DNA of 64,000 nucleotides from an uncultured Pseudomonadales bacterium (GCA_964583795.1 CAZOWX010000003.1:23978-87977); one strand, 5' to 3'. Positions 35,472 to 50,541 are shown, counted from the first letter of the stretch. The notes: generated from the sequence alone by a model not told the origin. Translations and numbers: made by a program.

Positions 35472-36008
35472 CTAGAATGTGACCCTAACTATCCCAAGTA
35501 ATGCTGCACGTCTATTTTGTGGATTATTGAAGGTATATGTACAGTTTTCACTGAGTGACAATTGGTTGAGATCATATACGGCAAATACTCCGTGGTTTGC
35601 TTTAACATCGAGGTTTTGCATATGAGAAATGATAGGTTGCATCTTGTGATCAAGGGGAAATTGTTCCTGATCGCTTCGAGGGAAGTCTCGTAGTGTACAA
35701 CATCGAATTGAGTTTTTGCGTCCACTTGAAGAGACGCACCCAAATTGTTTTACTTCTTCCATTTGTTTATCATGAGCGACAAATGCACAATACCCACATT
35801 GAGGTCCCCAGAGATTGACTTTCTGTAACCCAGCTCTAATAGCTCTGCGCTCTGCAGTGGGATCACCTTTTAACTTTCTTAAGTCAATTTGTATTTTTTG
35901 AATGGCAGGAACGACTACTTCTGGTGTGGGTTTGGTAGTAGTAGCTGTTTTTCCTTGCTCTTTGAGCCAAGCACTAAAATTAAAATGCTTTGGTGGTGGT
36001 TCAATCAT
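35472..36008 (-). CDS. hypothetical Cys-containing protein (WGPQCGYC motif)
   Basis: The ORF reaches 36176, but the plausible start is MIEPPP at 36008. It overlaps and abuts a plus-strand ORF. Confidence 0.35.
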   Translation of the reverse strand: MIEPPPKHFNFSAWLKEQGKTATTTKPTPEVVVPAIQKIQIDLRKLKGDPTAERRAIRAGLQKVNLWGPQCGYCAFVAHDKQMEEVKQFGCVSSSGRKNSIRCCTLRDFPRSDQEQFPLDHKMQPIISHMQNLDVKANHGVFAVYDLNQLSLSENCTYTFNNPQNRRAALLGIVRVTF

Positions 36009-36479
36009 ATGCGTACACACTCGTATCGAGAATTTTTTTGGGAACTTGTAGTTCTCAGTGTTGCTCAAGGTGTGACGCTTTTGAGAGCTGTCGATCGATT
36101 TTTTTATAAGATAAACTATCGCTTTTTGCTGAATAACACCCAATTGAAAGTTGAGTATGGTGGAGTTCATAAGCACTCACTGCAAGTTCCACTCCAACTG
36201 ATTTCATATGTTTATGTTGAATATACTGAAAGAGGGCGAAGAAGCTACCGAATTTTTCCTTCGGTGGTGGTTGAGTTTGTACCGAAACATACGATGATGA
36301 AAGCGGAAAGTATTTCTACTGAAAAATTACGACCAGATAGAAATAGAGTAGAGCTGAAAGGTTTTTCAACTGAGCAAGCGAAACAGATAAAACAAGCGAT
36401 TGTTGATCGAATAGAACGCTACCATAAACATAATACGGTCTATAATCATCGCTTAGATGAGTTGTTGAGTGAGTACTGA
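36009..36479 (+). CDS. hypothetical protein (possible bacterial PH-like)
   Basis: 157 aa from MRTHSYREFFWELVV. It is back-to-back with the minus-strand gene start, so one of the two start assignments is probably wrong. Confidence 0.3.
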   Translation: MRTHSYREFFWELVVLSVAQGVTLLRAVDRFFYKINYRFLLNNTQLKVEYGGVHKHSLQVPLQLISYVYVEYTERGRRSYRIFPSVVVEFVPKHTMMKAESISTEKLRPDRNRVELKGFSTEQAKQIKQAIVDRIERYHKHNTVYNHRLDELLSEY

Positions 36480-36549: not shown

Positions 36550-37917
36550 TTACAGTTTTTTATTAAAGCGATCTTGAATAAGTTCAAATGTAGACTGGTT
36601 CTCTCCCTGTGGAACGACTTGTAAGTCGTGTCCAATAAAGTATGGTTCGCCATTCCATGAGAAAAAGACCCCTGTTGAATTTTGTTTTCTTCCTAGAGCT
36701 GTAACGACTTTATCAATAAGGGAAGTAAGATTTTTTTCCTCGCCTGTTTCTATAGGGTAGTTTCTCGATCCGATGGAGTTGTCCTCTTGTTCATAACGTA
36801 AAATTTCAGAAATTGGGGCTAAATCGATTTCTGAAGTTTGAGTCAGAGTTAGAACCTTTTGCCTCATCAAATTTATTAGTTGAGAAATTTCTGCTCTTCG
36901 AGTCGAAGCAATGTTTTTTAATACTGAAAGGTCAAGTACTCTTAATCCCTTGGTATCAACTTTTCTGATTGGTGAAGAAACTGACAACATAATTCTTATT
37001 ATTTGCTCTCTTAGTTTTGCAAGACCAATTTTTACTGACTGAGTTGTTGTTTCATCCACTTCAAATAGTTCTGGGAAGTAATGTTGGATCATTACTACAC
37101 CTTCTGCAACCAATGGAGTAGCAAAAGAATTGCCGGAAAATGAGCCAAGACCTCTTTGTTTCCAACTACTTATAAATCGTACATCTGTGGAGTCTGGTCT
37201 ACAGTTTTTTTCTCTAAAGACATCACTAATTGCTTGTGCATTTGGGACTGCTGGGTGCACTATAGTTATTCCTGCCACTGAAATTGATTGATTTAAAAAA
37301 GCTGTATTCTCATTTAGCTCGTCTGGGCTTGTCTGATTCGTTGTAGACACTACGAAAATAAATCCGAACTCTCGTAATTTAGTAATAGCTTGTGTGTATT
37401 GCTTGATATAGTGATCATACATTTGTAAAAATCCGGCAAGGTCAACGCTCTCTCCCCATACTTTTATTGTACCTTGAGAGTCTTCGTGTCTATCCAAATA
37501 ACGATTAAACTCGGTTTCAAGTTGTGTCCTGGTAAAACGAAGGGGGTGAGTTGAAATAGAAATTACTCTCCCTAACTCGTGGCGATATTCAACCATTTGT
37601 TCAAATAAATTATTGAAGAGTCTAAATCCGTATAAAACGCCCTCGAGCGCATTTTTAGGAGTAACACCATCTGCTAGTTCTAAAAATCGAACATTGTTAG
37701 GATAAATACTCGTTGTACTCACTAAACTTTCAATTTCTGTGCCATGTGGATCAGAAGTCAAATTTACGCCAAAAAGGCCGTTACTCCAAATTAATGAATA
37801 TTTGTCGATTATAATAAGTTGGTGATCCCCAAAGTCTGTTTCTCGAAGAGAGTCTATTCCTGAAATTTGTCTAAGATATCCCAAAGCTTCAGTGATAAAA
37901 CGATCTTTTTCATTCAT
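36550..37917 (-). CDS. S8 (subtilisin)-like serine peptidase, cytoplasmic, with a ~200-aa C-terminal extension
   Basis: Asp, His and Ser triad candidates in S8 order: IIIDK, HGTEIESL and GNSFATPLVAEG (GTSxAxP-like). No signal peptide. Confidence 0.45.
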   Translation of the reverse strand: MNEKDRFITEALGYLRQISGIDSLRETDFGDHQLIIIDKYSLIWSNGLFGVNLTSDPHGTEIESLVSTTSIYPNNVRFLELADGVTPKNALEGVLYGFRLFNNLFEQMVEYRHELGRVISISTHPLRFTRTQLETEFNRYLDRHEDSQGTIKVWGESVDLAGFLQMYDHYIKQYTQAITKLREFGFIFVVSTTNQTSPDELNENTAFLNQSISVAGITIVHPAVPNAQAISDVFREKNCRPDSTDVRFISSWKQRGLGSFSGNSFATPLVAEGVVMIQHYFPELFEVDETTTQSVKIGLAKLREQIIRIMLSVSSPIRKVDTKGLRVLDLSVLKNIASTRRAEISQLINLMRQKVLTLTQTSEIDLAPISEILRYEQEDNSIGSRNYPIETGEEKNLTSLIDKVVTALGRKQNSTGVFFSWNGEPYFIGHDLQVVPQGENQSTFELIQDRFNKKL

Positions 37918-38019
37918 AGTATTATTATATAATTTATAACTAAAAAAACTGTGTCAACTTCTGGGTGAAAAATATAAAAAAATGTATCCTTTGGGTAATA
38001 ATAATTATTTTTTTGTTTC

Positions 38020-38751
38020 ATGAAAATTTTACTCAGCAGCATAATAACAACTACTGACGATGGCGTAGTTGGTAGTAAAGCAACTAATTTAGCCCAATTG
38101 AATGATTTTGGTTTTATTGTCCCGTCATTTTTCGTTATTGAATTAGATTTAGGTGAAAAAGTTTCTCAATATAAAGATGAAATTCTTAAGCAGTTTGACA
38201 CGCTTCGCAGTGATGAAGTATCGGTGCGTAGTAGCTCTAGCGTTGAGGACTCAAAAAATTATAGCTTTGCCGGATTGTTTGATACTTACCTACATGTAAC
38301 AAGAGACCAAGTAATAGAAAAAATCGAAGCCTGTTTTGCTGCGGTTCGCAATCAACGGGTGGAGGAGTACTGCAAAGTAAATGGTATTGATGCTGACCTA
38401 GTCAAGATGGCAGTTATTGTGCAGACCATGATAAGTGCAGAGTATAGCGGTGTGTGTTTTACCAAAAATCCAGTGACCAATAACGAGAGTGAAATTATGA
38501 TAGAGGTAGCACAGGGGGATGGAGAGAACGTGGTAGCAGGAATTGTGACTCCGGATAATTTTGTGATTCAAAAAAATGACCTCACTTTCACCAATGAAAG
38601 TGCCAACTTGCCAGAATCAAAAACAGTTGCACAGCAAGTTGCATCAATCGCGAAAGAAATCGAGCACAAGTTTGGCTATTTTGCCGATATCGAGTGGTGT
38701 TTTAAGGATGGAGTGGTGTTTGTCTTGCAGGTGCGGCCGATTACGAGTTAG
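38020..38751 (+). CDS. PEP-utilizing enzyme N-terminal ATP-grasp (PPDK_N) domain protein, stand-alone
   Basis: GSKATNLAQL, VRSSSSVEDSKNYSFAGLFDTYL and DIEWCFKDGVVFVLQVRPIT match the nucleotide-binding domain of PEP synthase and rifampin phosphotransferase. Confidence 0.8.
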   Translation: MKILLSSIITTTDDGVVGSKATNLAQLNDFGFIVPSFFVIELDLGEKVSQYKDEILKQFDTLRSDEVSVRSSSSVEDSKNYSFAGLFDTYLHVTRDQVIEKIEACFAAVRNQRVEEYCKVNGIDADLVKMAVIVQTMISAEYSGVCFTKNPVTNNESEIMIEVAQGDGENVVAGIVTPDNFVIQKNDLTFTNESANLPESKTVAQQVASIAKEIEHKFGYFADIEWCFKDGVVFVLQVRPITS

Positions 38752-39427
38752 TCGATTTGTTTGCTGGGTTGATGTACCATACTTCTCCATAAGTAGGATC
38801 ATCCCAAGCAAACTCAAGAATTTCAGCAATGGCTCCCAAAACTTCTTCATGACAAACCATTAAGAAAGGGAATGTGTCAGCCAACTGAAAAACAGTGAAA
38901 AGTGCTTGTCTGACTCTTTCTCGCACCATATCAGGACTTTCCTCGCCCTCGTAGAACTGCATTCCGGCCTTCGCTTTGCGTTTCCAAGCTCGAAACCAAT
39001 TCTCACCTTCTAACATGTTTGCTTCCCAGCGAGCGTATGAGTTTGGCATTGTATCCGTGGGACCAATGACTTTGACATCGCGCAAGTCGGGTACTACTTG
39101 TTGCTTGCAGTTGATACCTGCTTTTGTCAGAGTATCAATAACAATCTCAGTCGTTTGCAGACAACGGCGTTTTGGACTGGTAAAAACAGTAAAGGAAGTA
39201 ATGTTGTGCTCCCGAAGGTACTGCACAATTTCATCAGCTGCAGCGACAACGATTTGTTTGCCTTTTTCTGTTAGTGTCCCTTCAACATTGTCGCCGCCGC
39301 GATCTTCTTCCGGTGTATATGCTGCTTGGCCATGACGCATAGCAATGAATGGATTTGAGAGTTCTGCACGAGTACTTTGAAATATCCGGGAACTCATTGG
39401 TTTACCGATACGTTCTGCAAGTGACAT
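38741..39427 (-). CDS. Histidine phosphatase superfamily protein (phosphoglycerate-mutase-like)
   Basis: RHG catalytic motif (RHGQAAY) near the N-terminus. 228 aa. Confidence 0.7.
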   Translation of the reverse strand: MSLAERIGKPMSSRIFQSTRAELSNPFIAMRHGQAAYTPEEDRGGDNVEGTLTEKGKQIVVAAADEIVQYLREHNITSFTVFTSPKRRCLQTTEIVIDTLTKAGINCKQQVVPDLRDVKVIGPTDTMPNSYARWEANMLEGENWFRAWKRKAKAGMQFYEGEESPDMVRERVRQALFTVFQLADTFPFLMVCHEEVLGAIAEILEFAWDDPTYGEVWYINPANKSTNS

Positions 39428-39436
39428 AGGTTCCTT

Positions 39437-40471
39437 TTAAATGATTGTAACAGTGCCTTTTTCTCCGTCAATTTCCACTTCCTGACCATTTTTCAGGATT
39501 TCTGTGGCGCTGTGGGTGCCAACAACACAAGGAATTTTCATTTCACGCGCGATAATGGCAGCATGACTCAGGATCCCACCTTCGTCAGTAATAATACCTG
39601 AGGCTTTATGACACGCGATGGCAAGTTTGGGTTGGGTGCTTTCGCTGACTAATATGGCACCATGGGGCATTTTGGCCATGCACTCTTCTACATTTTGATT
39701 AGCAAGTGAGACGACATAGACTTTACCGCGAATGATGCCTTTACTGGCACCGAGTCCAGCTAATTGACTTACTATCTTTGAAGAGTTTGGCATGAGTTTC
39801 TGGAAGTTTTTTCGAGCTGTTTCACCATAAACGTACTGAAGTGAGCCGTCTGGATTTTTGGTGATTAGAAAATGGGATTTGCGCTCTACTAGTTGTGCTG
39901 AAGTGATTGGGGCAAGTGATAAGTGCAGGATTTCGTCAAAGTTTAAAAACTGGACATCACTTTTGGTGAGCTGATGTTGTTTGCCAATGAGTGTGGCAAC
40001 TTCATACAAATCTTCTGTTGCCAACACACACGTTTCAATAAATTGCAGGCGAAACTCTCCCACGATTTTGATGATTTTTTCATCTTTCATAGGGTGAAGT
40101 AGCGTCGTGTGAAACTCTTCAGTGGTAAAATACAGTCGGTAACTTTCAGCAAGGACAGTGCTTAGTCTGTCAAATAATGTGGATAATTGCCGCTCATTTT
40201 CATCCACTTTCTTCACTGATGCATGTAATTGTCGACCTTGCCCGGTGAGTTTTTTAGCACTCAAGAAAAGTTCAGCAATTTTTTCTTGATTCCTCAAATG
40301 GTGGAGACCTTTTTTGGCCAAGACTGGTAGCTCTTTTTGGGCGACAAACCCTTTGACTTTATGGTTTGTGTAGTAGACAAAAGATCGTGAACCACCCCAG
40401 TACGGTAGCCAAGTGCTGATCGAAAGGACTTTATCGAGTCCATCGGTGAAGATGTGTTGGTAGGAGGACAT
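39437..40471 (-). CDS. PEP-utilizing enzyme phosphohistidine (swivel) domain protein
   Basis: C-terminal GGILSHAAIIAREMKIPCVVG...EIDGEKGTVTI is the mobile His domain. The N-terminal ~230 aa resemble the central domain of the RPH/PpsA family. Confidence 0.75.
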   Translation of the reverse strand: MSSYQHIFTDGLDKVLSISTWLPYWGGSRSFVYYTNHKVKGFVAQKELPVLAKKGLHHLRNQEKIAELFLSAKKLTGQGRQLHASVKKVDENERQLSTLFDRLSTVLAESYRLYFTTEEFHTTLLHPMKDEKIIKIVGEFRLQFIETCVLATEDLYEVATLIGKQHQLTKSDVQFLNFDEILHLSLAPITSAQLVERKSHFLITKNPDGSLQYVYGETARKNFQKLMPNSSKIVSQLAGLGASKGIIRGKVYVVSLANQNVEECMAKMPHGAILVSESTQPKLAIACHKASGIITDEGGILSHAAIIAREMKIPCVVGTHSATEILKNGQEVEIDGEKGTVTII

Positions 40472-43885: not shown

Positions 43886-44155
43886 TTAGTATACTTGGTT
43901 ATGGGAACCTACGTCATAAAAACGGATGGTGTCATGCTCAATTCGATATATTACCCTGATGTCTCCCGTAACTGAAAACGAACGAAATGTTTTGAGTGAA
44001 CCAGTGAGTGGGTGATCTCTCAGTAGAGGATTAGGGTTATGTGGATTTTTCAAAAACGCTTGCAGCCTTTGTTCAAATTTTGCTTTCAAGTTCTTATAAG
44101 GGAAAACTCTTTGTTCTAAATGCTTCTGGAAATTTTTCTGATATTTAATCGTCAT
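43886..44155 (-). CDS. Type II toxin, RelE/YafQ family mRNA interferase
   Basis: ...RDHPLTGSLKTFRSFSVTGDIRVIYRIEHDTIRFYDVGSHNQVY matches the YafQ/RelE C-terminal fold motif. Confidence 0.75.
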   Translation of the reverse strand: MTIKYQKNFQKHLEQRVFPYKNLKAKFEQRLQAFLKNPHNPNPLLRDHPLTGSLKTFRSFSVTGDIRVIYRIEHDTIRFYDVGSHNQVY

Positions 44156-47724: not shown

Positions 47725-47880
47725 TGGGCGGAGAGTGTAGAGTGCGAAATGTGGATTATAGATTGTGGATGATGGATTTTTTGTACTTGGCTTGAGAGAA
47801 TAGACTTGTAGCTTGTCATTTTGACAGGCTCAATGTAAAAGCTTGCTTGCCCGCCGTAGCTTTACTGTGTCCTCTCGTAG

Positions 47881-47895
47881 TCCCGCAGTGCGGGA
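47881..47895. repeat. 15-bp palindrome TCCCGCAGTGCGGGA
   Basis: Direct reading. Confidence 0.6.
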
Positions 47896-47966
47896 CGAAG
47901 TGGGAGCGGAGGAGGGTAGCTTGTATCTCGTCAACTTCCCCTTATTATCAAAAAGAAGAGAAGCTT

Positions 47967-50276: not shown

Positions 50277-50386
50277 GGCGGTTAGTATATAGTATTTTGT
50301 ATATGGTATGTAGAGGGAAGGGATTGGGGAGTGGGGATTATAGATTATGGATATATGGATGGTGGATTGTGGAATGTGCCAGTCCA

Positions 50387-50425
50387 AGGCTGGTCCGCCT
50401 TGGGCGGAGAGTGTGGATTTAGCGA
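50387..50425 (+). repeat. Double-hairpin repeat (TGCCAGTCCAAGGCTGGTCCGCCTTGGGCGGAGAGTGTG)
   Basis: Identical to the copy at 13446. Confidence 0.6.
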
Positions 50426-50474
50426 CTAGGGATTAGTGCTTGACTTGATGAGTGTGGGTTGTTGCAATTGATTC

Positions 50475-50541
50475 TTGCGGCTTGCGGCTTGCGGCTTGCG
50501 GCTTGCGGCTTGCGGCTTGCGGCTTGCGGCTTGCGGCTTGT
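50475..50541 (+). repeat. (GCGGCTT)n tandem array, about 9 units
   Basis: Direct reading, immediately upstream of mreB. Confidence 0.8.

Follow-up and report, generated by a model that had tools for sequence, protein, structure and literature searches.

The DNA analysed here is a 64-kb stretch from an uncultured bacterium (CAZOWX010000003.1:23978-87977), which in its full length is referred to as the window, and which contains three adjoining genes that specify the two halves of a putative split dikinase together with a phosphatase-like partner. The first of these, designated G (38020-38751, + strand), encodes a stand-alone minimal ATP-grasp (PPDK_N) nucleotide-binding subunit of 243 aa; the second, designated S (39437-40471, - strand), encodes a protein of 344 aa composed of an acceptor-side helical domain and a C-terminal phosphohistidine swivel domain; and the third, designated H (38741-39427, - strand), lies between the other two and encodes a capped His_Phos_1 protein of 228 aa that resembles the cofactor-dependent phosphoglycerate mutases (dPGM) and PhoE. 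Pfam profiles were applied to the open reading frames (ORFs) of the window, with the curated cut-offs of NCBIfam serving as an additional test, and it was established that the window harbours one G, one S and one H gene in total and that the domain scores of the locus are far beyond chance. The start of H is located 9 nt from the stop of S on the same strand, while G and H, as read directly in the sequence, converge in a 3′ overlap of 11 nt (38741-38751), the TAG stop codon of G ending at 38751 and the TAA stop codon of H being the reverse complement of 38741-38743. A convincing intrinsic terminator was not found at the G/H junction, the promoter and terminator scans not rising above shuffled expectation. 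A preliminary description of this DNA had named a stand-alone ATP-grasp gene, a separate and convergent swivel gene and, between them, an RHG-containing phosphatase gene overlapping the former by 11 nt, and each of these assignments was upheld, either by the Pfam matches given below or by the reading of the overlap itself.

The ATP-grasp and swivel-histidine subunits

The ATP-grasp subunit G matches PF01326 (PPDK_N) at 182 bits (E 1.9e-53). When aligned to rifampin phosphotransferase (RPH), residues R70 and T89 of G coincide with R117 and T136, the two residues of RPH that touch the α-phosphate of ATP and that are both essential (PMC4844700), and the C-terminal segment DIEWCF...LQVRPIT of G is conserved. 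The protein is a minimal version of its domain, being without about 45 residues that correspond to RPH ~50-97 and about 25 residues that correspond to RPH ~237-277, and its 243 aa compare with about 317-330 aa for typical stand-alone G proteins. A separate ATP-grasp subunit with its nucleotide-binding residues in place is a feature of PpsAB/CreHI/HpeHI-type dikinases, and this feature was found in G.

The swivel domain of S (about aa 232-344; 39440-39778, - strand) was recognised across aa 269-339 by PF00391 (PEP-utilizers; 88.7 bits, E 1.8e-25), and a profile search of the PDB aligned aa 212-328 to the swivel domain of phosphoenolpyruvate (PEP) synthase (E 7e-32). Its putative catalytic residue is His303 (codon 39563-39565) within the motif T295-x-x-G-G-x-x-x-H303, which in the window reads T295-DE-GG-ILS-H303 and in which H303, G298 and G299 do not vary among 30 sequences. 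As T/SxxGGxxxH is the swivel motif defined for HpeH and its relatives (PMC12167813), S displays the swivel-histidine feature of the PpsAB/CreHI/HpeHI-type dikinases. The N-terminus of S carries a subfamily signature, H6-I-F-T-D-G-x-D-K14 (40430-40456, - strand), of which H6, F8, T9, D10, G11, D13 and K14 are invariant in an alignment of 15 members; this signature is not conserved in the broader set of S paralogs and is only partly kept in the S protein of L012, a distant lineage described below. The AlphaFold2 (AF2) model of S (pLDDT 92.5, pTM 0.84) found its best Foldseek match in RPH-Lm (E 5e-12 to 1e-10 over 267-364 columns), and the N-terminal domain of Enzyme I was also among its fold matches. 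The PEP/pyruvate-binding TIM barrel PF02896 was not found in S, G or their neighbours, Pfam giving only PF00391 for S and PF01326 for G. The Pfam search and the proximity of the S model to RPH support the assignment of G and S as two halves of one enzyme family, that of RPH/PpsA-like dikinases without the PEP/pyruvate barrel, rather than as members of unrelated families, in line with what the preliminary description had supposed.

The characterised two-component dikinases HpeHI (Rhodococcus), CreHI (Corynebacterium) and the phenylphosphate synthase PpsAB (Thauera/Aromatoleum) comprise an ATP-grasp subunit and a subunit in which a rifampin (RIF)-binding domain homologue is combined with the swivel domain (PMC12167813); HpeI, CreI and PpsB are the counterparts of G, and HpeH, CreH and PpsA those of S. 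The T/SxxGGxxxH motif and the lack of a PEP/pyruvate barrel are shared by all of these, and on the strength of such sequence features the G/S unit probably belongs with the two-component small-molecule dikinases. There are, however, several differences: the parts are smaller (S 344 aa against 71 kDa for HpeH, and G 243 aa against 40.6 kDa for HpeI), the RIF-binding homologue that forms the acceptor domain of the known systems is only partly matched in S, the host is of the candidate phyla radiation (CPR) type by homolog names, the context is not one of aromatic catabolism, and G of the window is convergent to S and not co-transcribed with it. The preliminary description had regarded the organisation as undescribed, a claim that has to be withdrawn, as the split is already present in PpsAB, CreHI and HpeHI (PMC12167813) and is common in CPR/DPANN loci; the split organisation being known, it is the S-H pairing that is specific here.

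RPH-Lm (PDB 5FBS/5FBT/5FBU, 5HV1) likewise has a C-terminal swivel domain, and G aligns to its ATP-grasp domain, but it consists of one chain (about 867 aa) in which the RIF-binding domain is large, whereas the window has two genes and a reduced helical acceptor domain. The PEP synthase (PpsA) and PPDK enzymes possess homologous ATP-grasp and swivel-histidine domains, the swivel being central and accompanied by the PF02896 barrel, whereas in S it is C-terminal and without a barrel. Two functions were considered and rejected, the first being that of a PEP synthase/PPDK, given the missing PEP/pyruvate domain and NCBIfam scores of 46-159 bits against cut-offs of 598-883, and the second being rifampin resistance, given the reduced acceptor domain and scores far under the cut-off of the RPH equivalog NF041857 (G 129 bits and S 66 bits, cut-off 999).

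The histidine-phosphatase-fold partner and its linkage to S

The product of H matches PF00300 (His_Phos_1) at 48.4 bits (E 1.1e-12, cut-off 21.7) and has the RHG motif (codons 39329-39337), the second catalytic histidine, the phosphate-binding arginine and the fold that characterize this family. Members of His_Phos_1 carry out catalysis via a phosphohistidine on the RHG histidine, as captured in the phosphoenzyme structure 1c7z. An alignment of the H family established that R31, H32, G33, R88, D117, E142, H193, E194 and E195 are invariant, and because the catalytic residues are among them H looks catalytically competent. The AF2 model of H, which was modelled alone (pLDDT 91.1), had as fold neighbours the dPGM enzymes, PhoE, CobC and PspA with TM-scores of about 0.5, and H has a conserved cap insertion at aa ~117-165. 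SixA was absent from the top 50 fold neighbours of H. The protein scored below the curated NCBIfam cut-offs for SixA (TIGR00249: 28.4 bits, E 1.3e-6, cut-off 74.5), dPGM (TIGR01258: 17.4 bits, cut-off 81.7; other dPGM models below 22 bits), CobC and GpmB, and its likeness to dPGM is at the level of the fold only. The subfamily is very small, in that a search of 1.84 billion representatives gave just 6 clusters at E<=1e-30, after which the score falls from 112 bits to 71 bits, where generic His_Phos_1 proteins are reached.

In all eight readable contexts of H, S is either directly upstream on the same strand or fused to it. These contexts are the window, L090 (ACD_40C), L011, L003-5, L006, L001/2, L096 and L097, and the H-side counts rest on look-ups of the encoding contigs, as a scan of metagenome contigs with the H alignment gave only the ACD_40C locus. 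If S is taken as the starting point, it is followed by H in six of eight lineages, the exceptions being L008 and the WWE3 representative L010. One of the six H clusters, P0003 (567 aa), is a natural and essentially linker-less S-H fusion, the phosphatase half of which (FMAMRHGQAIYS...) is plainly orthologous to H of the window (FIAMRHGQAAYT...). The pairing of a swivel protein with a histidine-phosphatase-fold protein, on which the preliminary description had based its interpretation, is borne out by the eight contexts and by this fusion. In the distant lineage L012 the genes S, H and G are consecutive, with overlapping stops and starts; its S and H proteins are 29% and 25% identical, respectively, to those of the window, and its H protein keeps the family motifs RHGxxxYTxEE, D[VI][KR]xIG and HEE. 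Because L012 keeps an S-H-G operon at such low identities, the two members of the S-H pair must have been diverging together for a long time. When the flanks of 11 such loci were compared all against all, S, H and G proved to be all that they share, and as judged by these comparisons the S-H pair is the conserved feature of the locus. The neighbourhood set out in the preliminary description is therefore conserved in part, as S-H is kept across lineages, whereas G lies on the opposite strand in the window lineage only and the adjacent peptidase gene, dealt with below, is absent elsewhere. Among the lineages with S-H, G is near S only in the window lineage and in L012. A paper describing a dikinase with a histidine-phosphatase-fold partner was not found in the searched literature, the coverage of which is incomplete, so that this is absence of evidence only.

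A NUDIX hydrolase gene directly follows S-H in L011 (1006-1446) and G-S in L009 (2231-3108), and these neighbours, two cases only, may hint at nucleotide-linked substrates.

Conservation in a close relative and in CPR/DPANN genomes

A close relative of the locus, L008, exhibits 89% (S) and 92% (G) nucleotide identity to the window and shares with it the convergent arrangement of S and G, which, as it recurs at this level of identity, is no assembly artefact. In L008, H is cleanly replaced, between the stop of S and the stop of G, by a Gp49/HTH toxin-antitoxin pair (window 38756-39447 against L008 1299-2106). The ratio of non-synonymous to synonymous substitution rates (dN/dS) between the two loci is 0.12 for S and 0.22 for G, and, as this purifying selection shows, the dikinase has been kept even though H was lost from the L008 locus. 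The same data bear on the notion that G and S are merely the decaying remains of an RPH/PpsA-like gene, formerly full-length, that a local rearrangement broke apart, in a neighbourhood that is coincidental. Such a history could account for the placement of G and S on opposite strands, for a G protein shorter than its typical stand-alone counterparts and for the rearrangement of the region between strains, but neither ORF is disrupted and none of the catalytic motifs is missing, the dN/dS values are low, many lineages possess stand-alone short-G and S families in which S precedes G on the same strand, and S-H adjacency holds in eight of eight contexts for a very rare H family. The fragment scenario is effectively refuted by these selection and conservation data and is left with hardly any probability.

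A small predicted membrane protein, of which the C-terminal ~140 aa are highly conserved and for which there is no family match, is encoded at 35889-36479 (+ strand), and its homolog in L008 (2854-3426) is located directly upstream of G on the same strand with a gap of 11 bp; it was not found beside G or S in any other locus. The membrane-protein gene may be co-transcribed with G. In the window these two + strand genes, which adjoin in L008, are separated by an ORF of 455 aa (36550-37917, - strand), described earlier as an adjacent S8-like peptidase. The ORF and its adjacency stand, while its match to PF00082 is marginal and partial (25.1 bits, cut-off 21.8), covering profile positions 114-260 of 288 only (aa 154-285). 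The serine motif GNSFATP is present at aa 262, the N-terminal Asp/His half is unmatched by the profile, and a candidate Asp (IIIDK, motif from aa 35) and a candidate His (HGTE, aa 58) lie outside the matched S8 region, the S8-like assignment being, on this sequence evidence, the weakest of the four domain calls. The GC content of the gene is 36.7% as compared to 42.5% for the window, and a homolog was not found in L008, in any of the 97 related loci, in phages (tblastn), in PHROGs or among PDB sequences. As it is absent from L008 and the 97 loci and is of atypically low GC content, the peptidase gene is a strain-specific insertion that is not part of the unit, and as a component of the system it was rejected for its lack of conservation.

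There is toxin-antitoxin turnover around the locus: besides the pair in the place of H, a PIN/PhdYeFM pair is inserted near an MFS gene in L008 (3440-4061), and a YafQ/ParE-like toxin gene is present in the window at 43886-44155 (- strand). The sequence upstream of S in L008 (1-254) matches window positions 47805-47911 and 50335-50484, 7-10 kb away, which indicates that the ~40.5-47.8 kb segment was rearranged or deleted between strains. In the window S is flanked by a peroxiredoxin gene, which is not so in L008. A variable region rich in toxin-antitoxin genes, in which the closest solved structure to one of the products is RPH, might be taken for an antibiotic-resistance or defence island composed of an RPH-like drug kinase, a phosphatase and a peptidase. 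This interpretation is very improbable, given that G and S fall far short of the RPH equivalog cut-off, that the acceptor domain is about half the RIF-binding domain, that the peptidase is missing from L008 and from every related locus, that S-H pairs elsewhere lie among housekeeping genes, and that no component has a match in PADLOC or PHROGs. The link to defence catalogues contemplated in the preliminary description did not materialise, as six locus proteins gave zero matches in PADLOC-DB v2 at E<=0.1, and the flanking hypothetical proteins gave zero matches in PADLOC, in PHROGs and by phage tblastn.

Homologs of the locus proteins are named candidate division WWE3, ACD_40C 'uncultured bacterium' and Patescibacteria group, and these names, from which alone the affinity is deduced, point to a CPR/Patescibacteria origin near WWE3. 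No Rfam match, tRNA included, was obtained at the gathering threshold in the 64-kb window. The GC skew is positive over nearly the whole window, with one 2-kb bin slightly negative, and long ORFs are mostly on the + strand.

To place G and S among their relatives, species-representative genomes were scanned with the S alignment and then with local hidden Markov models, which yielded 80 loci (L010-L089). In these CPR/DPANN loci S and G are as a rule separate genes, a stand-alone G being present in 26 of the 80 and fused G-S proteins in 11. Tandem S paralogs are frequent, with at least three in 36 of the 80 loci and at least five in 20, up to a maximum of 10, and the common order is that of several S genes and then a single G, all on one strand, which holds for other short G proteins too. 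An apparent His_Phos_1 match in L050 (18 bits) was discarded, being without Pfam support. In L007 (JGI Ga0366841_1000750) the called-gene table places a stand-alone PPDK_N gene and a PEP-utilizers gene within a cluster reminiscent of histidine utilisation (aromatic ammonia-lyase, PALP enzyme, urocanase), but this locus was left out of account, its DNA having yielded neither a translation equal to the query nor any match to the hidden Markov models. The S arrays (PF00391, about 360-630 aa, up to 10 paralogs) often end in one PPDK_N gene of about 317-330 aa, examples being L015, L023, L026, L030, L032, L067, L071 and L087, and within arrays the identity amounts to 22-25% in the N-terminal parts and to 47-56% in the swivel parts. 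The presence of one PPDK_N gene per array, together with N-terminal divergence set against swivel similarity, suggests that one shared ATP 'charger' may serve many acceptor-specific modules. Fused giants of 1048-1508 aa, which consist of one ATP-grasp domain and two or three acceptor-plus-swivel units (L016 2334-5477, L027 3897-8420, L041 and L070 3300-7508), resemble arrays whose members have been joined covalently. A description of the CPR/DPANN arrays was not found in the searched literature, and here too coverage was incomplete and the result is absence of evidence only.

Proposed phosphoryl transfer and the role of H

From the domain identities, catalytic motifs and folds we infer a flow of phosphoryl groups that begins with the binding of ATP by G. 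The swivel domain of S would then dock on G, whereupon His303 would take the β-phosphate and ATP would be converted to AMP, Pi and S-His303~P, and the swivel would subsequently return to the N-terminal helical domain of S, where a small-molecule acceptor would be phosphorylated. That G binds ATP and charges His303 of S, and that S in turn phosphorylates a bound acceptor, is in our judgement very likely when taken by itself. In a fourth step H would work on the phosphorylated product or a derivative of it, removing or relocating the phosphate, so that S-H would constitute a coupled phosphorylate-then-dephosphorylate (or mutase) unit, while G would work in trans, its linkage to S being unnecessary. 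The complete proposal, an RPH-type two-component small-molecule dikinase formed by G and S with H acting on the phosphorylated product, is the one we favour, albeit with a confidence only a little better than even. In HpeHI the histidine is essential, the subunits form no stable complex, and HpeH alone shuttles phosphate between substrates (PMC12167813). The Hpe pathway as a whole proceeds by phosphorylation, transformation and dephosphorylation, its phosphatase being a NagD-like HAD enzyme that follows an intervening carboxylation (PMC9618137), whereas the partner here is a rare His_Phos_1 subfamily directly after or fused to S. It is because of this phosphorylate-then-dephosphorylate precedent, and because of the capped active site of H, that a small-molecule product is favoured as its target.

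Several observations weigh against this proposal. The acceptor domain of S is RPH-like only in roughly 70 residues beside the swivel, the rest being a long generic helical bundle, and the RIF-binding domain is about twice as large as the domain as a whole. The neighbours of S-H are unrelated housekeeping genes, for example those encoding DNA ligase, GatCA and an rRNA-methyltransferase-like protein, and do not indicate a substrate. In six other lineages G was not found within the readable 3-16 kb, and G-driven dependence on ATP is assumed there. The absence of H from the L008 locus shows that S and G can be kept without it. Lastly, to place a phosphatase directly beside a kinase, or even to fuse the two, would seem to serve no purpose if H were not a mutase and no chemical step came in between.

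The tight linkage of S and H, and a linker-less fusion that holds H beside the swivel domain, would also be in agreement with H being a SixA-like phosphohistidine phosphatase that resets S-His303~P, in which case the locus would encode a self-regulating module and not a two-step metabolic unit. SixA, like H, is a His_Phos_1-fold enzyme tied to a phosphohistidine-carrier system (PMC7948535), and it dephosphorylates both NPr, a carrier that receives its phosphate through an enzyme possessing the same swivel domain, and the phosphohistidine intermediate of Ndk (PMC7948535, PMC12934123). SixA is among the weak NCBIfam matches of H (E 1.3e-6), and the persistence of S and G in L008 without H is what would be expected if H were a regulator. 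The score of 28 bits is nevertheless well short of the SixA cut-off of 74.5, and SixA is a small uncapped core of about 160 aa, whereas H has 228 aa, is capped and is nearer dPGM, PhoE and CobC, the top 50 folds being capped small-molecule enzymes from which SixA is missing. To our knowledge SixA is not encoded beside, or fused with, its targets, and a fused phosphatase acting on its own carrier would turn P0003 into a futile ATPase. A role for H in resetting the carrier is for these reasons considered unlikely.

If the phosphoryl group were instead handed from His303 of S to His32 of H, the latter would function as a phosphomutase or phosphotransferase primed by ATP and independent of a bisphosphate cofactor, and the helical domain of S would serve to dock H. 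Such a His-to-His relay would be compatible with the phosphohistidine chemistry on the RHG motif that is general to His_Phos_1 enzymes, with the cofactor-dependent phosphoglycerate mutases being the nearest folds to H, with an S-H adjacency that is obligate and extends to fusion, and with the behaviour of Enzyme I, a swivel relative that docks its protein acceptor via a helical subdomain and whose N-terminal domain is among the fold matches of S. The best structural match of S is, however, RPH and not Enzyme I; the invariant N-terminal H/D/D/K motif suggests that S has a catalytic or ligand site of its own; and the retention of S and G under purifying selection in L008, where H is missing from the locus, is a mild argument against an obligate relay. 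The relay with H as an ATP-primed enzyme is accordingly held to be decidedly improbable, and the wider proposition, in which S-H is a phosphorelay from the swivel histidine to the catalytic histidine of a phosphoglycerate-mutase-fold enzyme and CPR/DPANN organisms share one ATP-grasp 'charger' among many swivel modules, is improbable also.

With the dikinase proposal, what had been a split enzyme of unknown kind can be seen as a member-like relative of the two-component small-molecule dikinases, a class defined only recently, which would thereby be extended to the ultra-small CPR bacteria in a minimal form of 243 + 344 aa. In addition, a concrete partner can be named, in that a rare His_Phos_1 subfamily comes after, or is fused to, the swivel protein. 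If H acts on the product, the pair would represent a kinase/phosphatase (or mutase) unit of compact form in organisms whose metabolism is very limited, while an action of H on phosphohistidine would amount to a new regulatory or relay mechanism, and a relay, if true, would mean that His_Phos_1 enzymes can be activated in a new manner that dispenses with a bisphosphate cofactor. The swivel arrays served by a single ATP-grasp gene, being widespread in CPR/DPANN genomes, represent large uncharacterised enzyme families.

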